Origin: a virus
Lineage: Duplodnaviria > Heunggongvirae > Uroviricota > Caudoviricetes
Reading direction: 5' to 3' (one strand)
Length of the DNA: 33,876 nt
Virus record (IMG/VR): IMGVR_UViG_2698536610_000003
Every line of letters begins with the position of its first letter. Positions within the stretch are counted from its first letter, which is position 1. The position numbers were made by a program, and so were the translations under genes. Of this stretch, positions 4,166-33,876 are shown piece by piece. The notes below the pieces were generated by a model. That model was not told the origin of the DNA, ran no database searches, and saw only the letters and a list, made by a program, of their open reading frames with translations.

Positions 4166-6410
4166 AGCCTCCGGGCGTTTTGTCCCTCCATCAGCATTTG
4201 CCGCAGGCACCGGTAAGGCGTTTACCGGTGCTTATGCATGGAACGCGCCACGCGAGGCTGTCGGGCGCGAAAGACCCCTTACACGTGACGAGATGCGTCA
4301 GGTGCAAGGTGTTTTATCCACGATTAACCGCCTGCCTTACTTTTTGCGCTCGCTGTTTACTTCACGCTATGACTACATCCGGCGCAATAAAAGCCCGGTG
4401 CACGGGTTTTATTTCCTCACATCCACTTTTCAGCGTCGTTTATGGCCGCGCATTGAGCGCGTGAATCAGCGCCATGAAATGAACACCGACGCGTCGTTGC
4501 TGTTTCTGGCAGAGCGTGACCATTATGCGCGTCTGCCGGGGATGAATGACAAGGAACTGAAAAAGTTTGCCGCCCGTATCTCATCGCAGCTTTTCATGAT
4601 GTATGAGGAACTCTGCGATGCATGGGTTGATGCACATGGCGAGAAAGAATCGCTGTTTACGGATGAGGCTCAGGCGCATCTGTATGGTCATGTTGCTGGC
4701 GCTGCACGAGCTTTCAATATTTCCCCTCTCTACTGGAAAAAATACCGTAAAGGACAGATGACCACGAGGCAGGCATATTCTGCCATTGCCCGTCTGTTTA
4801 ACGATGAGTGGTGGACTCATCAGCTTAAAGGTCAGCGTATGCGCTGGCATGAGGCGTTACTGATTGCTGTCGGGGAGGTGAATAAAGACCGTTCTCCTTA
4901 TGCCAGTAAACATGCCATTCGTGATGTGCGTGCGCGCCGCCAGGCAAATCTGGAATTTCTTAAATCGTGTGACCTTGAAAACAGGGAAACCGGCGAGCGC
5001 ATCGACCTTATCAGTAAGGTGATGGGAAGTATTTCTAATCCTGAAATTCGCCGGATGGAGCTGATGAACACCATTGCCGGTATTGAGCGTTACGCCGCCG
5101 CAGAGGGTGATGTGGGGATGTTTATCACGCTGACCGCGCCGTCAAAGTATCACCCGACACGTCAGGTCGGAAAAGGCGAAAGTAAAACCGTCCAGCTAAA
5201 TCACGGCTGGAACGATGAGGCATTTAATCCAAAGGATGCGCAGCGTTATCTCTGCCGCATCTGGAGCCTGATGCGCACGGCATTCAAGGATAATGATTTA
5301 CAGGTCTACGGTTTGCGTGTCGTCGAGCCACACCACGACGGAACGCCGCACTGGCATATGATGCTTTTTTGTAATCCACGTCAGCGTAACCAGATTATCG
5401 AAACCATGCGTCGCTACGCGCTCAAAGAGGATGGCGACGAAAGAGGAGCCGAGCGAAACCGTTTTCAGGCGAAACACCTTAACCGGGGCGGTGCTGCGGG
5501 GTATATCGCGAAATACATTTCAAAAAATATCGACGGCTATGCACTGGATGGTCAGCTCGATAACGATACTGGCAGACCTCTGAAAGATACTGCCGCGGCT
5601 GTTACTGCATGGGCGTCAACGTGGCGCATCCCGCAATTTAAAACGGTTGGTCTGCCGACAATGGGGGCTTACCGTGAACTACGCAAATTGCCTCGCGGCG
5701 TCAGCATTGCTGATGAGTTTGACGAACGCGTCGAGGCTGCACGCGCTGCCGCAGACAGTGGCGATTTTGCGTTGTATATCAGTGCGCAGGGTGGGGCAAA
5801 TGTTCCGCGCGATTGCCAGACTGTCAGAGTCGCCCGTAGCCCGTCGGATGAAGTTAACGAGTACGAGGAAGAAGTCGAGAGAGTGGTCGGCATTTACGCG
5901 CCGCATCTCGGCGCGCGTCATATTCATATCACCAGAACGACGGACTGGCGCATTGTTCCGAAAGTTCCGGTCGTGGAGCCTTTAACTTTAAAAAGCGGCA
6001 TCGCCGCGCCTCGGAGTCCTGTCAATAACTGTGGAAAGCTCACCAGTGGTGATACTTCGTTACCGGCTCCCACACCTTCTGAGCACGCTGCAGCAGTGCT
6101 TAATCTGGTTGATGACGGTGTTATCGAATGGAATGACCCGGAGGTCGTGAGGGTGCTCAGGGGCGCATTAAAACACGGCCTGAGAACACCAAATCGTCAG
6201 CAAAGAAACGGAAGCCCGTTAAAACCACATGAAATTGCACCATCGGCCAGGCTGACCCGGCCGGAACGATTGCAAATTACCCGTATCCGCGTTGACCTTG
6301 CTCAGAACGGTATCAGGCCTCAGCGATGGGAGCTTGAGGCGCTGGCGCGTGGGGCGATGGTGATTTATGATAATAAAAAATTCAAATATCCAGTGATTGA
6401 TGAGTGGTAA
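4155..6410 (+). CDS. A: replication initiation protein A (HUH rolling-circle endonuclease)
   Basis: About 751 aa from ATG 4155 (track starts at 4113; MAVKASGRF matches the P2 A N-terminus as I recall). HUH motif PHWHMML and tandem-tyrosine motif YIAKYISK read directly. Confidence 0.92.
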   Translation: MAVKASGRFVPPSAFAAGTGKAFTGAYAWNAPREAVGRERPLTRDEMRQVQGVLSTINRLPYFLRSLFTSRYDYIRRNKSPVHGFYFLTSTFQRRLWPRIERVNQRHEMNTDASLLFLAERDHYARLPGMNDKELKKFAARISSQLFMMYEELCDAWVDAHGEKESLFTDEAQAHLYGHVAGAARAFNISPLYWKKYRKGQMTTRQAYSAIARLFNDEWWTHQLKGQRMRWHEALLIAVGEVNKDRSPYASKHAIRDVRARRQANLEFLKSCDLENRETGERIDLISKVMGSISNPEIRRMELMNTIAGIERYAAAEGDVGMFITLTAPSKYHPTRQVGKGESKTVQLNHGWNDEAFNPKDAQRYLCRIWSLMRTAFKDNDLQVYGLRVVEPHHDGTPHWHMMLFCNPRQRNQIIETMRRYALKEDGDERGAERNRFQAKHLNRGGAAGYIAKYISKNIDGYALDGQLDNDTGRPLKDTAAAVTAWASTWRIPQFKTVGLPTMGAYRELRKLPRGVSIADEFDERVEAARAAADSGDFALYISAQGGANVPRDCQTVRVARSPSDEVNEYEEEVERVVGIYAPHLGARHIHITRTTDWRIVPKVPVVEPLTLKSGIAAPRSPVNNCGKLTSGDTSLPAPTPSEHAAAVLNLVDDGVIEWNDPEVVRVLRGALKHGLRTPNRQQRNGSPLKPHEIAPSARLTRPERLQITRIRVDLAQNGIRPQRWELEALARGAMVIYDNKKFKYPVIDEW

Positions 6411-6539
6411 GGCTATTAGATTACGAATAAATACAGGTCTTATTGATGGATTGGGTAATAGTAAACTTTAAAAAATAATAATTGTAATGTTTTAAATTAT
6501 AGTTAAATTTCGCTTAATGACATTATCTTCTTAATATTT

Positions 6540-6569
6540 AAAGTGCCTCCCATTATTAGGGGGCACTTT
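6540..6569 (-). terminator. hairpin immediately downstream of the cargo operon (stem aaagtgcc/ggcacttt plus GC extension, 7-nt loop)
   Basis: Inverted repeat read directly, 17 nt past the PRTase stop on the minus strand, followed by an A/U-rich tract; sits between convergent A and cargo operon. Confidence 0.4.
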
Positions 6570-6585
6570 AAATTATGGGGTTAAT

Positions 6586-7869
6586 TTATTGTGGCCAGTC
6601 CCAGTTATCATATTGTTGAATTTTTTCTGATAACACTTGAGGTGCACTACCGTGAGTTACATTTTCAGCATAACCAATCGTACCGACATAGTTAATGTCA
6701 TCAACATCAAGTGTATTGGCCTCCCATGGCCGTATCTTGCGAGTTGGTTCACAGATAGAAACGTCACGATTGATGGTTTTTAACCACGATATATTTATTA
6801 CATTTGCGCCTGCAGCTTTTAGATACATTCTGGCTGTTTCATGAGCATTTCCTTCAGTGCAAAAATCATCAATAACTAATATTTTCTTACCTTTCAATTT
6901 AGGAGGGTTGGTATATCTTTCGCCGGTGATGAGGTTTTTAATAGGGGCAGGATTTAAATTAACGGTGTTTATTTGAGATGTGATGTTTACTTCTTGCTTA
7001 GCTATCCGAGCTTGCTGTGATTTAATAGCTGTTGTATGTCGTAAGAATAGATCTTTTAGATACTTTCCTTTGAATGAGACTGCTAAACCTTTTAGGTCAT
7101 GCTCCATAATGTTTGCTAGTTTATAAGGATCTTCAGCGTTATGTCCAACGTAGGTGGTTATAAAACTTGCTCCTTCACTTAAGCCAGAGAAATAAATGCT
7201 AGCACCAAGATATCTTATCCAAAAATCGGGGCTTCCAACCGATAGCTTTGCGAGGTCTCTTGCATTGGCTGAATACATTGTAAATTCAGGGACATATGTG
7301 CTAAATGGTGCTAAGGCGTAGTAGTGAACATCTTCATTAAAATGCCCTTGCCATCCCCACAACTGCTCTCTTAAGCAAAAAACATCAATAAATCTAGCGA
7401 TTTCTTTGGGTTCTGAAAATTGAAAACCGTACTCAGTAACCGGTTCATACCAGGTCGCATTAATAAATAGGGTATTCCCGTTGGTAGCTGCTTGTAAGTC
7501 TTCCTGAGAACGCCCTACATAGATCATTTCGTTTCGTTTTAATTCTAACGCAGCCATGATGAAATCTATGGCCTTCCCTGTTTGTTTTGCTGGTATGTTG
7601 TTGTCGAGTTCACGGCAAAAGTGAATTGATTCTGGGAATTTCCTTTTTAGGTATTCGTCTAGTGTTACGATCCCGTCATGTGTTCTCACGTTTCTATTTT
7701 TATTTGTCAAGAAGATAACTTTAATCCCTTTTGATGACAAAAACGCAAACAACTTACGTAATTCAGAATCGATTCTAGATTTTAGTTCCTGAGGTTGAGT
7801 GTTAGATGTTAATGGTAATACAACATCTGCGATTGAAAATATAACTGCCTTTAAATACATATTATTCAT
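6586..7869 (-). CDS. PRTase-domain protein (ComF-like) with possible HAD-like N-terminal region
   Basis: 427 aa; PRPP-binding-loop-like KILVIDDFCTEGNAHE at aa 329-344 (compare hhhhDDhhTTGgT); N-terminal 140 aa shows a HAD-like motif order (hhhh-Thr, Lys, GxxxED) but with the first Asp replaced; AT-rich; start ATG overlaps upstream gene as ATGAATAA. Confidence 0.75.
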   Translation of the reverse strand: MNNMYLKAVIFSIADVVLPLTSNTQPQELKSRIDSELRKLFAFLSSKGIKVIFLTNKNRNVRTHDGIVTLDEYLKRKFPESIHFCRELDNNIPAKQTGKAIDFIMAALELKRNEMIYVGRSQEDLQAATNGNTLFINATWYEPVTEYGFQFSEPKEIARFIDVFCLREQLWGWQGHFNEDVHYYALAPFSTYVPEFTMYSANARDLAKLSVGSPDFWIRYLGASIYFSGLSEGASFITTYVGHNAEDPYKLANIMEHDLKGLAVSFKGKYLKDLFLRHTTAIKSQQARIAKQEVNITSQINTVNLNPAPIKNLITGERYTNPPKLKGKKILVIDDFCTEGNAHETARMYLKAAGANVINISWLKTINRDVSICEPTRKIRPWEANTLDVDDINYVGTIGYAENVTHGSAPQVLSEKIQQYDNWDWPQ

Positions 7870-8911
7870 CTCCCAGAAGAGAAAGTTGCTGTGTTTTTAC
7901 ACCGGATGCTGATTTAATTAAGCTTTGCACGTCTTTAAAATCGGATAGTGGAATATTCATTATCGTAGCTGAGTACTCTGACAAGGCATGTTTAATCTCT
8001 TCTTGAGGTGTAGTTCCCCTAAGTAAAGGACAAAGTATCGCTCTTTTTAATTGAGCAGCATATCTCACAGTATGAGATGTCCCACTTTTTAGGCCCCATT
8101 CAACTGGGATCAATACATCACTTAAAGCTGCTTGAATTCTATTTCTACGAACAAAGTTTTCCTGTGATGGTTTTTGGTTTGGTAAATACTCAGTAAGAAT
8201 CAGTCCGCCATTATTTACAATATGGCCTCTCATCTCGCCACTATTTTTGGGATAATTTGAGTTTACGCCAGTACCTAACACAGCAATTGTCGGTATTTTA
8301 AATAACAGGGATGCTTCATGTGCAGATTGATCTATACCATATGCTAAACCGCTTACAGTTGAATAATCCGAATCTATAAATTGCGAGATTACTGCTTGAG
8401 TTAAATAAATTCCAAGTGCGGTTGGGTTTCTGGTGCCGACAACTCCAACACACTTTTTATCTAGCAAGGATACATTGCCTTGAGCAAACAACCAGAAAGG
8501 CGGCTCAGACAGGTCATTCAACTTGTCTGGATAGCTCGGAGAACCATAGTGGATGATTTTGTAACCACTATTATGATAATGTGTGAGTAATATTTTAGCC
8601 GTAGAAATCATGCTGTCCCGAAAAACAGACCAATTGCCTTCATTCAAATAATAAGGTTGGCGATGAAGTTTTACTCCAAGTAGATACTCAAAGTTGGCTA
8701 ATGTTTGACTGGTAACAATGTCTCTAAATCTGATTCCCTTTTGAGCAACTTTATATAGAGTCCAATAACTAACGCCATGTATTTCTGATAGTGCCAACAA
8801 AGCGGCACTTTCTGTGTTCCATCGAGCTGTTTCAATATCCGTCATAATGTTCGCCAAAATGGAAGATTTTTTATCGCTTTTATCATAGGTTTGTATAAAA
8901 GTGTAGCACAT
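7862..8911 (-). CDS. DprA/Smf-like Rossmann-fold protein
   Basis: 349 aa; core VSGLAYGIDQSAHEASL...TIAVLGTGVNSNYPKNS...FVRRNRIQAALSDVLIPVEWGLKSGTSHTVRYAAQLKRA parallels DprA Rossmann signature (SGxAxGID..AH..AL, AVLG.G....YP, RNRI.A.LS); N-terminal helical region; AT-rich. Confidence 0.8.
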   Translation of the reverse strand: MCYTFIQTYDKSDKKSSILANIMTDIETARWNTESAALLALSEIHGVSYWTLYKVAQKGIRFRDIVTSQTLANFEYLLGVKLHRQPYYLNEGNWSVFRDSMISTAKILLTHYHNSGYKIIHYGSPSYPDKLNDLSEPPFWLFAQGNVSLLDKKCVGVVGTRNPTALGIYLTQAVISQFIDSDYSTVSGLAYGIDQSAHEASLLFKIPTIAVLGTGVNSNYPKNSGEMRGHIVNNGGLILTEYLPNQKPSQENFVRRNRIQAALSDVLIPVEWGLKSGTSHTVRYAAQLKRAILCPLLRGTTPQEEIKHALSEYSATIMNIPLSDFKDVQSLIKSASGVKTQQLSLLGDE

Positions 8912-18485: not shown

Positions 18486-19121
18486 ATGAACACTCTCGCA
18501 AATATTCAGGAACTCGCGCGCGCACTGCGCAACATGATCCGCACCGGCATTATCGTCGAAACCGACCTTAACGCCGGTCGCTGCCGTGTGCAGACCGGCG
18601 GCATGTGCACCGACTGGCTTCAGTGGCTGACCCATCGCGCCGGACGTTCGTGCACATGGTGGGCACCTTCCGTGGGGGAACAGGTGTTGATTCTGTCCGT
18701 GGGCGGTGAACTCGACACGGCGTTTGTTCTGCCGGGGATTTATTCCGGCGATAATCCCGCGCCGTCTGCGTCGGCGGATGCCCTGCATATCCGTTTCCCT
18801 GACGGGGCGGTGATTGAGTATGAACCCGAAACCAGTGCACTGACGGTAAGCGGAATTAAAACGGCCAGCGTGACGGCTTCTGATTCTGTTACTGCCACGG
18901 TGCCGGTGGTCATGGTGAAAGCATCAACCCGCATCACCCTGGACACACCGGAGGTGGTCTGCACCAACAGGCTGATTACCGGCACGCTGGAAGTGCAGAA
19001 GGGCGGGACGATGCGCGGCAACATTGAACACACCGGCGGTGAACTCTCATCAAACGGTAAGGTACTGCATACCCACAAACACCCCGGCGACAGCGGCGGC
19101 ACAACCGGGAGTCCTTTATGA
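18486..19121 (+). CDS. V: baseplate spike protein V
   Basis: 211 aa, size and order as P2 V. Confidence 0.9.
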   Translation: MNTLANIQELARALRNMIRTGIIVETDLNAGRCRVQTGGMCTDWLQWLTHRAGRSCTWWAPSVGEQVLILSVGGELDTAFVLPGIYSGDNPAPSASADALHIRFPDGAVIEYEPETSALTVSGIKTASVTASDSVTATVPVVMVKASTRITLDTPEVVCTNRLITGTLEVQKGGTMRGNIEHTGGELSSNGKVLHTHKHPGDSGGTTGSPL

Positions 19122-20911: not shown

Positions 20912-23230
20912 ATGAGCACAAAATTCAGAACCGTTATCACCACTGCCGGTGCAGCAAAGCTGGCAGCGGCAACCGCACCGGGAGGGCGGAAGGTCAACAT
21001 TACCACGATGGCCGTCGGGGATGGCGGTGGTAAATTGCCTGTCCCGGATGCCGGACAGACCGGACTTATTCACGAAGTCTGGCGACATACGCTGAACAAA
21101 ATCAGCCAGGACAAACGAAACAGTAATTATATTATCGCAGAGCTGGTTATTCCGCCGGAGGTGGGCGGTTTCTGGATGCGTGAGCTTGGCCTGTACGATG
21201 ATGCGGGAACGTTAATTGCCGTGGCGAACATGGCCGAAAGTTATAAGCCAGCTCTTGCCGAAGGCTCAGGGCGTTCGCAGACCTGTCGCATGGTCATCAT
21301 CGTCAGCAGTGTGGCCTCGGTGGAGCTGACCATTGACACCACAACGGTGATGGCGACACAGGATTACGTTGATGACAAAATTGCAGAGCACGAACAGTCA
21401 CGACGTCACCCGGACGCCTCGCTGACCGCAAAAGGTTTTACTCAGTTAAGCAGTGCGACCAACAGCACGTCTGAAACACTGGCCGCAACGCCGAAAGCGG
21501 TAAAGGCCGCCTATGACCTTGCTAACGGGAAATATACCGCACAGGACGCTACCACAGCACGAAAAGGCCTTGTCCAGCTCAGTAGTGCGACCAACAGCAC
21601 GTCTGAAACACTGGCCGCAACGCCGAAAGCGGTAAAGGCCGCCTATGACCTTGCTAACGGGAAATACACTGCACAGGACGCCACTACAGCGCGAAAAGGT
21701 CTTGCCCAGCTCAGTAGCGCCACCAACAGCGATTCTGAAACGCTTGCGGCAACACCAAAGGCGGTTAAGACAGCGTATGACCTTGCTAACGGGAAATACA
21801 CTGCACAGGATGCCACCACGGTGCGAAAAGGTCTTGTCCAGCTCAGTAGCGCCACCAACAGTGATTCTGAAACCCTCGCGGCAACGCCAAAAGCAGTGAA
21901 GTCTGCCTATGACAATGCTGAAAAACGTCTTCAGAAAGATCAGAACGGTGCGGATATTCCGGGAAAGGATACCTTCACGAAAAATATCGGTGCCTGTCGT
22001 GCTTATAGCGGCGCTTTGAGCACTGAAGCCGGAAACTGGACAACCGCTCAGTTTATTGAATGGCTGGATTCCCGTGGTGCATTTAATCATCCGTACTGGA
22101 TGTGCAAAGGCTCCTGGTCATATGCAAATAACAAAATCATTACGGATACCGGATGTGGTGATATCCACCTGGCTGGTTGTGTCGTCGAGGTCATGGGAAC
22201 TAAATCTGCAATCACTATCCGAGTGACCACGCCGACAACATCAAGTGGTGGCGGTACAACCAGCGCGCAATTCACTTACATTAATCATGGGGACGGCTAC
22301 TCCCCCGGCTGGCGTCGTGACTGGAATCGTCAGGGCGACTCAATGACCGGAACGATTAATCAGGATGGCGGAAGCCAGAATGCCTATATGTCTACGGCCT
22401 TATGTTCAGGCACCAGAGGCGGCAAAAAATATCTCAGAAAGTTTCGTGGTGGAGAAGGAGATACTATCTGGCATGAAACAGTACAGGGCGAGGTAATTCG
22501 CTGGGCGACAGGTAATACTGATGCTCGGGAAGAATTATCACTCAGCTCTGTTTATGGTCTTCGTTCAAGAGGTGAAATTACATCGCTCAGTGCTAATGGT
22601 CTGCGCGTTGCTTATGGCAATTATGGATTCTTTATCAGGAATGATGGCGGCAGCACATATTTAATGCTGACGGCCTCTGGCGATAAATTTGGGACATGGA
22701 ACGGCTTAAGACCGCTGACTATCAATAACGCCAATGGCGGAGTGTCAATGGGGCATGGCCTGAGTGTTACAGGTGATATTGTCTCAAGTACCAAAGTACG
22801 TGCCGGTAGCGGGAAAAAGTTCACGGTCAGCAGCAGCAATACATCCACGAAGGAAGCCGCATTCAATTTGTGGGGAAACTCAAGTCGTCCTGTGGTGGCT
22901 GAATTAGGTGATGATGCAGGCTGGCATTTTTACAGTCAGAGAAATACAGATAACAGCATCACTTTTGCTGTTAACGGTCAGGTATCACCATCTAACTATG
23001 GCAACTTTGATTCACGCTATGTCCGGGATATCCGGCTTGGTGGTGCTGCCACATACAAACCTGCGAACAATGGCATGACATGGACACATCAGGCACCGTC
23101 CGGGTGTGTATATTCTGGCATTATTGTTCAGGATACCGGCTCAAACTCTGCCGATAACATTGGTGGCGTATATTACAGACCGGTGCAGAAATACATTAAC
23201 GGGACATGGTATAACGTGGCACAGGTATAA
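20912..23230 (+). CDS. H: tail fibre protein H (mosaic: P2-like N-terminus, four tandem fibre repeats, divergent distal domain)
   Basis: 772 aa (P2 H is shorter as I recall); conserved N-terminal 170 aa; repeats QLSSATNS[TD]SETLAATPKAVK...; C-terminal half unlike P2 H. Confidence 0.88.
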   Translation: MSTKFRTVITTAGAAKLAAATAPGGRKVNITTMAVGDGGGKLPVPDAGQTGLIHEVWRHTLNKISQDKRNSNYIIAELVIPPEVGGFWMRELGLYDDAGTLIAVANMAESYKPALAEGSGRSQTCRMVIIVSSVASVELTIDTTTVMATQDYVDDKIAEHEQSRRHPDASLTAKGFTQLSSATNSTSETLAATPKAVKAAYDLANGKYTAQDATTARKGLVQLSSATNSTSETLAATPKAVKAAYDLANGKYTAQDATTARKGLAQLSSATNSDSETLAATPKAVKTAYDLANGKYTAQDATTVRKGLVQLSSATNSDSETLAATPKAVKSAYDNAEKRLQKDQNGADIPGKDTFTKNIGACRAYSGALSTEAGNWTTAQFIEWLDSRGAFNHPYWMCKGSWSYANNKIITDTGCGDIHLAGCVVEVMGTKSAITIRVTTPTTSSGGGTTSAQFTYINHGDGYSPGWRRDWNRQGDSMTGTINQDGGSQNAYMSTALCSGTRGGKKYLRKFRGGEGDTIWHETVQGEVIRWATGNTDAREELSLSSVYGLRSRGEITSLSANGLRVAYGNYGFFIRNDGGSTYLMLTASGDKFGTWNGLRPLTINNANGGVSMGHGLSVTGDIVSSTKVRAGSGKKFTVSSSNTSTKEAAFNLWGNSSRPVVAELGDDAGWHFYSQRNTDNSITFAVNGQVSPSNYGNFDSRYVRDIRLGGAATYKPANNGMTWTHQAPSGCVYSGIIVQDTGSNSADNIGGVYYRPVQKYINGTWYNVAQV
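21443..21928 (+). repeat. in-frame tandem repeat, 3 full copies of 132 bp (44 aa) plus a partial fourth, inside H
   Basis: Copies start at 21443, 21575, 21707, 21839; near-identical DNA with scattered synonymous and few non-synonymous differences. Confidence 0.9.
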
Positions 23231-23761: not shown

Positions 23762-24043
23762 GTTGTATGAGCTCTGGTGTGAGCTTACATATCTATGGCA
23801 CAGAGTAAAGACTAATCTGACAGTCCGCTCTGTGCCAATAGCGGACGTAACAAGTATGATATTGGATGATGTTGCGAGGGGTGGTAGTCTGAAGCACGGC
23901 ATACGGCAATCGACCTAAAATGATGCCGTATTCAAGGAATTCTGGTATATGAGGCCTGTAAAATTGTTAACAGGATGCATACTTGTATGCAGCGCAAGTT
24001 ACCTTTAAGTTGGTTCAATTGAATAAACTATGTTTTCCCATGC

Positions 24044-24107: not shown

Positions 24108-25319
24108 ATGAGAGTAGAATTCACAGAAAGAACAAAGAATGTACTTGCTGGGAGAGCAGGATACCAATGTAGCCATCCTCAATGTTCAATAATAACTATT
24201 GGCCCAGGTGAAAAAGAGGATGAGACATCCAGCATCGGTGAGGCATCACATATTTATAGTGCAGCTAAAAATGGCCCCAGAGGGCAAGGTGGGCTAACAG
24301 AAGAACAGTTAAAAAGCCCTGAGAATGGAATTTGGCTATGTAAGGTACACGCAAGGTTAGTTGATACAAATAATGGAGCAGGATTTACCGCATCACAACT
24401 AATTAGTTGGAAAAAATATCATGAGGAATTCATTAAACATCACCAGGGAAGGATCGTCAATAAATTACATTGGATATCAAAACTATCAATAGTTGATAGT
24501 CCTTTATTTCAAGATTCAATAAGCATCGACTTTGCAAAAATAACAATTATTGAGAGTGATAGTAATGGCGCAGGGAAAACAGCAATATGCGAGTGGTTAT
24601 CAAGTGTCAGTGCAATAAATAGACTTGAGCGCTGGGTTAATTGTGAAAAGCTCAATATTGAAATTCATTTGCACACGCCAGAGCCACACTTAATTGAAGT
24701 GAGTGTAAATAGCGGAAGGATTTCCTATAAAGTTGATTCTCTTGACATTACCTCAAGTCCTTTTCCTTTTGCATGCTATTTTTTTGATTTTAATTACTCA
24801 AAGAAAAAATATAATAAAACATCTAACTTTTTTGCTGAGTTCATAAATATATCGCCAGTGCTACTTGAGAGTCTTTTTGATTATGTATGCAGAAACAAAA
24901 AAGGCATACTTAAATCAATCAGATTTGCTACTCAGGAAGAGCTGGAACAGGATGATGATAGTGAAGATGAAAAAGAGCGAGATATTCATGATATCTATTG
25001 CATGATACAAGGTAATGATTCTTATTTGCCTTTCGAGTGTTTATCTGGAAGTGAAAAAACTAGAGTGCTATTGGATGTTATAATCGCATCATTAAATGAG
25101 CGTTCCAAATACACACCGACACTACTTTTTATAGAAATGAATGAAACCTTTTTATCAAAGGAATCTTTTAAACCATACATTGAAAGATTGAATTCCATTG
25201 AGACTTCATTTCAAACCATCGTAACAACTCATTCGAACATATTAAATGAGTGTTCCGTAGGTTTTCCCCGTTATGAATTGATAAAAGGTATCAACACATC
25301 AACCTTGAGGAAAATATAA
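24108..25319 (+). CDS. HNH endonuclease fused to compact ABC-type (AAA_21-like) ATPase; candidate defence protein
   Basis: 403 aa. N-terminus: Zn-finger/HNH layout C21-x4-C26 ... ASHIY (H48) ... ENGIWLCKVH (N73, C78, H81) ... D86. C-terminus: Walker A-like SNGAGKT (K157), ABC signature-like LSGSEK (312-317), degenerate Walker B TLLFIEMNE (338-346), H-loop IVTTHS (H375). Strongly AT-rich. Confidence 0.75.
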   Translation: MRVEFTERTKNVLAGRAGYQCSHPQCSIITIGPGEKEDETSSIGEASHIYSAAKNGPRGQGGLTEEQLKSPENGIWLCKVHARLVDTNNGAGFTASQLISWKKYHEEFIKHHQGRIVNKLHWISKLSIVDSPLFQDSISIDFAKITIIESDSNGAGKTAICEWLSSVSAINRLERWVNCEKLNIEIHLHTPEPHLIEVSVNSGRISYKVDSLDITSSPFPFACYFFDFNYSKKKYNKTSNFFAEFINISPVLLESLFDYVCRNKKGILKSIRFATQEELEQDDDSEDEKERDIHDIYCMIQGNDSYLPFECLSGSEKTRVLLDVIIASLNERSKYTPTLLFIEMNETFLSKESFKPYIERLNSIETSFQTIVTTHSNILNECSVGFPRYELIKGINTSTLRKI

Positions 25320-25516
25320 AATAATCATTGTGTGATAAATTTTTAAAATGCCATTGTTTGTCAGGTCGAACTGGGTAAATGGATATAGTATTCATTCAAT
25401 AAACTGAATAAACCGTTGTCAACGTCCGCTCCTCGCTCAAAGCAGACAGTCAGATTTGATAGCATTTGGGCTATGTAAATTGTCAGGCGGAAAATGAGTG
25501 AGTACAAATCAGGACA

Positions 25517-32514: not shown

Positions 32515-33876
32515 TCACTTACCGTGGGGATTACGCGTGGTTTCCCCGGAGAAATTACGCATCAGCAGCGCGTAATTGAGCTCAAGATCCTGCGGGACCG
32601 GGAGCCACACAGTATAACCATCGCCTGGTGCTATCGGCATAGCTTCGCCTTTGGCGTTTTCCATGTGCTCAAGGGTAAAATTAATGTTGCCTTGCGGCGT
32701 CATCAGCTCAAGGCTGTCGCCAACGGAGAATTTATTTTTCACCGCTACCGCCGCGAGGTCCCCCTTGCGCTCACCGGTAAACTCACCAACAAACTGCTGG
32801 CGGTCAGAAACTGAATAACCGTATTCGTAGTTCTGATAATCGTCGTGAGTATGACGACGCAGGAAACCTTCGGTATAGCCACGATGCGCCAGACCTTCCA
32901 GAGTTTCCAGCAGGCTGGTATCGAACGGTTTTCCCGCAGCGGCGTCATCGATAGCTTTGCGGTAAACCTGTGCGGTGCGTGCACAATAGTAGAAAGATTT
33001 GGTACGACCTTCGATTTTCAGCGAATGCACGCCCATTTTGGTCAGGCGTTCTACATGGGCGATGGCGCGCAGATCTTTCGAGTTCATGATGTAAGTGCCG
33101 TGCTCATCTTCAAACGCGGTCATATACTCGCCCGGACGCTGGGCCTCTTCGATCATAAACACTTTGTCGGTTGGTGCGCCGATACCCAGCGTCGGCTCAA
33201 CATTTTGCACCGGAATCGGCTCGTACTTGTGTACGATGTTGCCAACATCATCTTCTTTCCCTTCCTGGACGTTGTACTCCCAGCGGCAGGCGTTGGTGCA
33301 GGTGCCCTGGTTCGGGTCGCGCTTGTTGATATAGCCAGAGAGCAGGCAGCGACCGGAGTAGGCCATGCACAGCGCGCCGTGAACGAAGATCTCGATCTCC
33401 ATATCCGGCACCTGATTGCGGATCTCTTCAATCTCTTCCAGCGACAGCTCGCGAGAGAGGATCACGCGGGTCAGGCCCATTTGCTGCCAGAATTTCACCG
33501 TCGCCCAGTTCACGGCGTTAGCCTGCACCGAAAGGTGGATCGGCATTTCAGGGAAGTGCTCACGCACCAGCATAATCAGCCCTGGATCGGACATAATCAG
33601 CGCATCCGGCCCCATTTCCACCACCGGTTTCAGGTCACGGATAAAGGTTTTCAGCTTGGCGTTGTGCGGTGCAATGTTGACCACGACATAAAACTTTTTC
33701 CCCAGCGCGTGGGCTTCATTGATGCCGAGCTGAAGATTTTCGTGGTTGAATTCGTTGTTGCGCACACGCAGGGAATAACGCGGCTGGCCCGCATAAACAG
33801 CATCTGCGCCATAAGCGAAAGCGTAACGCATATTTTTCAGCGTTCCCGCCGGGGAAAGGAGTTCCGGTTTAAACAT
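32515..33876 (-). CDS. yegQ: peptidase U32-family protein YegQ (host flank)
   Basis: 453-aa complete ORF (start ATG at the window edge), sequence I recognise as E. coli YegQ; convergent with ogr. Confidence 0.9.
   Translation of the reverse strand: MFKPELLSPAGTLKNMRYAFAYGADAVYAGQPRYSLRVRNNEFNHENLQLGINEAHALGKKFYVVVNIAPHNAKLKTFIRDLKPVVEMGPDALIMSDPGLIMLVREHFPEMPIHLSVQANAVNWATVKFWQQMGLTRVILSRELSLEEIEEIRNQVPDMEIEIFVHGALCMAYSGRCLLSGYINKRDPNQGTCTNACRWEYNVQEGKEDDVGNIVHKYEPIPVQNVEPTLGIGAPTDKVFMIEEAQRPGEYMTAFEDEHGTYIMNSKDLRAIAHVERLTKMGVHSLKIEGRTKSFYYCARTAQVYRKAIDDAAAGKPFDTSLLETLEGLAHRGYTEGFLRRHTHDDYQNYEYGYSVSDRQQFVGEFTGERKGDLAAVAVKNKFSVGDSLELMTPQGNINFTLEHMENAKGEAMPIAPGDGYTVWLPVPQDLELNYALLMRNFSGETTRNPHGK

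Follow-up and report, generated by a model that had tools for sequence, protein, structure and literature searches.

Tail fibre gene H and its repeat array

The DNA analysed here (33,876 nucleotides, in what follows the window) is as a whole a P2-like E. coli prophage, running from an integrase gene (583-1596) through to the host gene yegQ (32515-33876). Its ORFs at 18486, 19118, 19470, 20371, 20912 and 23234 correspond to V, W, J, I, H and G of P2, with the same order and spacing, and the fifth of them contains the feature that we describe (Table 1). This ORF had been identified as tail fibre gene H in a first-pass annotation, and the sequence supports that identification: its N-terminal domain is homologous to that of P2 gpH and belongs to Pfam family PF12571, it occupies the position of H in the V-W-J-I-H-G late operon, and a gene with a Caudo_TAP domain follows it, all of which points to a tail fibre of the P2 H type. 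The distal half of the protein is of a different kind. Residues 333-487 resemble Mu S' (PDB 8ju3, E 6.5e-91) and residues 519-771 resemble Mu S (PDB 5yvq, E 6.9e-61), with a PF21446 Gp34_trimer domain at residues 540-604; the PDB sequence search with the complete protein retrieved only Mu S/S', T4 gp34 chains and short tail fibre.

Table 1. Position of tail fibre gene H, its parts and the neighbouring assembly gene in the window.
Feature	Position	Strand	Basis or remark
Tail fibre gene H, P2 gpH type, 772 aa	20912..23230	+	ORF and Pfam domains
N-terminal baseplate-attachment domain, Phage_tail_fib PF12571	20912..21364	+	aa 1-151, E 2.9e-58
Repeat unit 1 (44 aa, QLSSATNSTSETLAATPKAVKAAYDLANGKYTAQDATTARKGLV)	21443..21574	+	Positional orthologue of P2 unit 1
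Repeat unit 2	21575..21706	+	92.4% identical to unit 1
83-bp tract of unit 2, interpreted as a gene-conversion patch	21584..21666	+	Identical to 21452-21534 in unit 1
Repeat unit 3 (NSDSE / AVKT type)	21707..21838	+	98% to Y115 unit 3
Repeat unit 4	21839..21937	+	DNA likeness to units 1-3 stops near 21919
Distal receptor-binding half, mosaic	21908..23227	+	PDB sequence matches, Pfam
Tail fibre assembly gene G, 175 aa	23234..23761	+	PF02413 Caudo_TAP, E 1.2e-34; position as P2 G

Between these two parts lies the only tandem array that Tandem Repeats Finder detected in the window (21458-21913, period 132, 3.5 copies, 88% matches, 0% indels, score 653). A second repeat search found the same array, spanning 21430-21919 with a spacing of 132 bp, and its location was thereby confirmed. 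The match is far beyond chance, and the array is in frame with the ORF. In translation the period is 44 aa; units 1-3 are full copies and unit 4 is like the others in the initial 27 aa (QLSSATNSDSETLAATPKAVKSAYDNA), beyond which it diverges, in agreement with the earlier description of three full copies and a partial one. In DNA, the first 81 nt of unit 4 are identical to those of units 1-3 at 62-69 of the 81 positions.

The units belong to Pfam family PF03406. Four stretches of the protein match the model with a total of 251.9 bits (E 1.8e-76), above the curated gathering cut-off of 22, and the family consists of units of ca. 40 residues in tail fibre proteins, as here. The best stretch (residues 170-210) covers model positions 1-41/42. 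The Pfam phase begins 8 aa before the one used in the first-pass annotation, and in that phase all four units count as repeats. The fourth reaches ca. residue 342, unit 4 running on into the Mu S-like part, and its counterpart by alignment is the one repeat in Mu tail fibre S (PDB 5yvq/8ju3, chain residues 99-174).

The four-unit arrangement is widespread. Among the 60 complete E. coli genomes that match best, at least 57 have the I-H-G segment with all of its 3,391 bp aligned and no gap, at 96.7-98.9% identity, and the isolated phages vB_YpM_115, 117 and 46 carry the same four units. A protein identical to that of the window is found on 61 contigs, and others, 99% identical to it, occur on 424 and 772 contigs. 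In principle, an assembly from short reads may get 132-bp repeats wrong, and nothing else speaks for a collapsed or expanded array in this case; against it stand the complete genomes and the three isolated phages, as well as the units themselves, which differ at 10-26 positions each and are thus distinguishable in reads of ordinary length. We give an assembly artefact virtually no credence and take the present assembly to be sound, while gene H in short-read assemblies in general needs checking.

Divergence and age of the units

The full units are far from uniform in DNA. Units 1 and 2 are 92.4% identical, with 43 of the 44 residues in common (dS 0.28 and dN 0.02 by the method of Nei and Gojobori, used for all these estimates); units 2 and 3 are 84.8% identical, with 40 of 44 residues (dS 0.65, dN 0.06), and units 1 and 3 are 80.3% identical, with 41 of 44 (dS 1.29, dN 0.06). 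Almost all of the differences are synonymous, and with dN/dS below 0.1 each unit is under purifying selection. By comparison, the adjoining N-terminal domain of the window has a dS of 0.09 relative to that of P2.

An all-against-all DNA comparison of units groups them by position and not by phage. Unit 1 of the window is 97% identical to unit 1 of P2 and 95% identical to unit 1 of Y115, P37 and L005, and for unit 2 the identity to its counterpart in Y115 and L006 is 94%. For unit 3 the closest counterpart is the third unit of Y115, followed by units 3 and 4 of L005 and unit 4 of L006 (95-96%), whereas its identity to its own neighbours in the array is only 80-85%. Taken together, units at the same position in different phages are 94-98% identical, against 80-92% between neighbours within the array. 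Because the units match the same-position units of other phages best, the duplications predate the split of this phage from P2 and the other phages. The duplications in the window are old, and two statements of the first-pass annotation, the near-identity of the copies at DNA level and their recent origin, are contradicted by the identities between full units, by the inter-unit dS of 0.28-1.29 set against the value for the P2 flank, and by the positional orthology.

The nature of the differences also bears on whether the repeats could form part of a system of programmed diversification, either the template and variable region of a diversity-generating retroelement (DGR) or an invertible segment of the Gin/Cin type. 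Tail fibre genes are indeed targets of such systems, and in some E. coli prophages an invertible segment comes after a PF03406 array (PMC4134206). However, the differences between units are mostly synonymous third-position transitions and not adenine-specific, the repeats are direct and in frame, and G comes directly after H, with no invertase-like gene seen at the H-G end and no inverted sites bracketing the 3' end of H. Programmed diversification thus has hardly any chance of being the explanation. As a DGR target the array was rejected on the lack of adenine specificity and on the ORF list, partly scanned for domains, in which no reverse transcriptase-like gene was noticed; as an invertible segment it was rejected on finding weak inverted repeats only, none of them bracketing the 3' end of H together with G. 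The only ORF between G and the sheath gene that would leave room for an invertase is one of 403 aa that is HNH/ATPase-like.

Copy number, exchange and mosaic joints

The number of PF03406 repeats varies among related fibres. P2 H has two, one full unit and one partial, and not the single copy given for it in the first-pass annotation; the fibre of Yersinia phage P37 and the lambdoid Stf-type protein of the O157:H7 strain SS52 have three each, those of the window and of Yersinia phage vB_YpM_115 four each, that of L005 five and that of L007 six. The comparison across relatives proposed in the first-pass annotation therefore gives a range of 2 to 6 units from P2 to L007. Copies were also counted with an HMM of the repeat core over the 120 best protein clusters, all of which have a distal half of the window type. 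Three copies were found in 32 clusters (728 aa, about 100 contigs), four in 40 (771-772 aa, about 1,400 contigs), five in 44 (795-819 aa, about 580 contigs) and six in 4 (855-863 aa, 4 contigs), the contig totals being approximate, since they are sums made by hand over these clusters. With the same distal half, lengths of 728, 772, 816/819 and 862/863 aa correspond to 3, 4, 5 and 6 units, and the increment between copy classes is exactly 44 aa. Alleles with four copies and alleles with five are each predominant in large sets of genomes. In a wider library of representatives at 50% protein identity, the unit is present in 869 clusters (E<=1e-3) in 1-16 copies, with up to 11-12 copies where the units are near-identical. 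A role as a contingency locus for phase variation was considered and rejected: 132 bp is a multiple of 3, and the natural variants with 3-6 units are in frame and of full length.

Some of the relatives carry traces of very recent events. In L005, units 3 and 4 are identical at all 132 positions and lie inside a perfect self-match of 191 bp with period 132, and the six-copy array of L007 contains a similar perfect self-match of 192 bp. These perfect adjacent units therefore represent fresh duplications in L005 and L007. In the window itself the longest in-register identical stretch between units 1 and 2 is the 83-bp tract of Table 1 (offset 9). At sites 15, 36, 39, 48 and 51 of unit 2 the window has the bases of unit 1, while the same five sites in unit 2 of Y115, L006, L009 and P37 have bases specific to unit 2, and the flanks of the window unit are of the unit-2 type. 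We interpret this tract as a gene-conversion patch from unit 1, with a length of 37-83 bp. Along similar lines, comparison of the window gene with its closest allele in a complete genome (AGR6137) gives 37 differences, of which 29 lie within gene nt 397-1056, in and around the array. Gene H contains no Chi site.

How active such an array is in the present population is a different matter. Four recent copies, near-identical in DNA, would make a hypervariable array that frequently expands and contracts within the phage population, and there are facts in its favour: the identical tract of 83 bp shared by units 1 and 2 suffices for RecA-dependent exchange, and relatives with fresh duplications and with 2 to 6 copies do exist. 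On the other side, identity between the units is 80-92% and dS reaches 1.29, the units have positional orthologues in P2, in Yersinia phages and in other prophages, and the four-copy state is both kept in the complete genomes described above and present on the ca. 1,400 contigs (an approximate figure) counted among the top 120 clusters. The array is not hypervariable, given that at least 57 complete genomes with alleles of 96.7-98.9% identity have retained this state. For the window array such a reading is largely refuted, and we regard it as quite improbable. The earlier suggestion that the array is prone to expansion and contraction consequently survives in part, as far as the range of 2 to 6 units and the fresh duplications in relatives are concerned, and fails with respect to hypervariability. 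The data support a slow expansion, contraction and exchange of units, and the history of the array is one of occasional in-register exchange set against long-term stability.

The array also coincides with the place where different fibres are joined. In DNA the window gene shares 96.8% identity with P2 H along gene nt 1-531 and 95.9% along nt 1-726, and homology to P2 H ends at nt 726, or at nt 860 in an alternative register, right after the core of the unit (...ATPKAVK). A full-text literature search with the string ATPKAVK gave no match. The DNA of the array also matches, at ca. 87%, genes annotated as "prophage tail fiber N-terminal domain-containing protein", the flanks of which are without similarity to the window. 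Of 5,426 complete E. coli genomes, 2,355 contain such matches, at a median of two places each. One example is the Stf-type protein of SS52, with 971 aa, a PF08400 N-terminus, an Ala/Ser-rich shaft and a Collar-domain tip, whose gene has three units with 84-87% DNA identity to those of the window. That P2 homology stops at the repeat core and that a lambdoid stf gene shares the repeat DNA support the view, also put forward in the first-pass annotation, that the repeat acts as a shared recombination joint or linker between fibre modules. Haggard-Ljungquist et al. 1992 and Sandmeier 1994 are reportedly the source of the idea of such a linker.

If modules are exchanged between phages at the repeat, crossovers between unit i of one phage and unit j of another would change the copy number as a by-product, with little or no slippage within arrays. 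The mosaic breakpoints do lie within the unit core, and potential partners are plentiful, with unit DNA in the lambdoid stf genes of the 2,355 genomes. Moreover, the N-terminal backbones of L006 and L007 are 84% identical to that of the window (and 3 aa longer), and their distal halves 92-93%. On the other hand, the identical adjacent units of L005 and L007 are most simply explained by events within the array, and the same applies to the conversion of window unit 2 by unit 1. Some of the differences in copy number may have arisen by exchange between phages; that this is their main source is possible, although we think it doubtful.

A putative fibre shaft and its place among known systems

The explanation that we consider probable as a whole is that of an array of old PF03406 paralogues that forms the proximal shaft of the fibre, recombines slowly and joins modules. 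The four PF03406 modules would constitute the proximal shaft of a trimeric fibre of P2 gpH type, situated between the baseplate-binding N-terminal domain and the receptor-binding distal half of the Mu S/S' kind. As a fibre of this type, the protein would be expected to make up the six fibres of the virion and to bind the host receptor. As old paralogues, the units have been preserved as protein by purifying selection while their codons drifted apart, and each position of the array has its own orthologue across related phages. In-register homologous exchange would alter the array slowly. Unequal crossing-over or slippage would lead to the gain or loss of whole 132-bp units, as in the relatives with 2 to 6 of them, gene conversion replaces part of one unit by the sequence of another, unit 2 of the window being the example, and crossovers inside the conserved core of the unit would join different N- and C-terminal modules. 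Each unit would add a fixed increment to the length or reach of the shaft, copy number setting the distance from tip to baseplate, and a change of shaft length with copy number, as the first-pass annotation had suggested, is plausible.

A search of the PDB by sequence and of the literature found no solved structure covering a tandem PF03406 array. In an in situ study of Mu only the N-terminus of the fibre was built (PMC11915804), and a study from 2012 noted that little was known of the structure and function of Pf2 (PMC3368898). An AlphaFold2 model of the whole 772-aa protein, predicted as a monomer though the protein is an obligate trimer, and from a shallow alignment of 21 sequences (87-99% identity), had a mean pLDDT of 36 and a pTM of 0.26, values at which the model is of no use.

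The number of units could have a more specific meaning, as a selected ruler that matches the reach of the fibre to the depth of the O-antigen or capsule layer on the host surface, with a synonymous divergence that is itself selected and suppresses recombination. If that were so, synonymous divergence would stabilise the favoured count, and occasional conversion or duplication would supply new length variants; the predominance of four-copy and of five-copy alleles in large sets of genomes would agree with discrete preferred lengths. We find this rather unlikely. It could also be that the strong conservation of the unit across unrelated phages reflects a specific binding role and not that of a simple spacer. 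The array marks a junction for swaps of fibre modules, of help in the engineering of P2-, pyocin- or Mu-type fibres, and the natural series of 2-6 units provides material for asking whether shaft length affects adsorption.

Among known proteins, P2 gpH (AAD03286, AF063097) is similar to that of the window in its first 242 aa, in the V-W-J-I-H-G synteny and in the gpG-type assembly protein encoded downstream, but has two repeats, another distal half and a length of 669 aa, against four repeats, a Mu S/S'-like distal half and 772 aa in the window. The Yersinia phages vB_YpM_115, 117 and 46 (Peduovirus) share the same four-unit array and architecture, with 96.4% DNA identity over gene nt 1-2129, and differ in the extreme C-terminal tip past nt 2129 and in a unit 2 without the conversion patch. 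The fibres of the prophages of the ST131 strain EC958 (PMC4134206) are comparable in having tandem series of PF03406 units in the stable 5' part of the gene, followed by exchangeable 3' parts; in EC958, however, a DNA invertase switches the 3' part, while neither an invertase nor crossover sites were found in the window. A 772-aa "tail fiber protein" of E. coli prophages also has the array and architecture of the window, with alleles 96.7-98.9% identical.

More generally, the units of the window match nearly the full model of PF03406 (Phage_fiber_2, "Phage tail fibre repeat", IPR005068), a family that includes lambda Stf, P2 H and Mu S, and whose members likewise have tandem units in the tail fibre between the attachment domain and the receptor-binding part. 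Nothing essential differs from this family in the window, where the count is four, against two in P2, three in the O157 Stf-type protein and one in Mu S. The four-copy array in a P2-type fibre gene is thus real, old, common in databases and ordinary, and it is already known: Pfam has the repeat as a curated family, many E. coli assemblies have yielded deposited copies of the exact protein, and the literature describes such arrays in prophage fibre genes.

Sequence differences along tail fibre gene H

We compared the H gene of the window with that of E. coli AGR6137, the closest complete-genome allele. No fewer than 29 of the 37 nucleotide differences fall in window 21308-21967 (gene nt 397-1056), that is, in the repeat array and the stretch just before it; the remaining 1.66 kb of H holds only 8.

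The distal half of the gene (window 21908-23227) is itself mosaic, with residues 333-487 resembling Mu S' (8ju3) and residues 519-771 resembling Mu S (5yvq). In the Yersinia phage alleles homology with the window's H stops at gene nt 2129, with the breakpoint near window 23040, and it is therefore the extreme tip of the fibre (about the last 60 aa) that has been exchanged.

Repeat units in other fibre proteins and an antisense reading frame

Four fibre proteins retrieved with the repeat unit from a 50%-identity protein library (P0121-P0124) carry 6-12 copies of nearly the same unit as the window's, alternating with a longer variant of ca. 61 aa (…AYDLAAGKAPSSHTHPWNQITGVPTASLTAKGIT), so that the 44-aa-type unit and the longer one together form a super-repeat of ca. 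105 aa. The gene calls behind two of these proteins (P0121 and P0122) may have been truncated or wrongly assembled.

The entire H array is also covered on the opposite strand by a putative 214-aa antisense ORF (window 21446-22090, - strand). Since every unit has the same stop-free reverse frame, the repeat itself most likely gave rise to this ORF as a by-product.

Cargo genes at the two hotspots

The 403-aa ORF found downstream of the tail fibre assembly gene G has an N-terminus that matches HNH endonucleases like those of the CBASS/SAVED-HNH effectors and PDC-M68A (E 3.6e-22), together with a weak C-terminal AAA/ABC-ATPase similarity (GajA, PtuA; ca. 1e-4), and is probably a single-gene defence candidate. 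At the other hotspot, PADLOC identified ShosT (427 aa, E 4e-296) and ShosA (349 aa, E 5e-231, DprA-like PF02481), a pair that constitutes a complete Shosta anti-phage defence system.

Cargo features of the window and its relatives
Feature	Sequence	Coordinates	Strand	Location or detail
ShosT + ShosA	window	6586-8911	-	between replication and portal genes, P2 old/tin hotspot
403-aa ORF	window	24108-25319	+	between G and sheath gene, P2 Z/fun hotspot
Inverted repeat	window	23814-23848 and 25422-25456		either side of 403-aa ORF; 35 nt, 80% complementary
TIR_2 protein	L005	6275-7240		G-to-sheath hotspot
197-aa protein, without Pfam match	L004; also in L009	5940-6533 (L004)		G-to-sheath hotspot
PgrR-type regulator	Yersinia phage vB_YpM_115 (L002)	5961-6848		G-to-sheath hotspot
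fun(Z)	P2 (L001)	5942 onward		G-to-sheath hotspot

Among the relatives of the window (L001, L002, L004, L005 and L009), P2 included, the cargo of the G-to-sheath hotspot varies.
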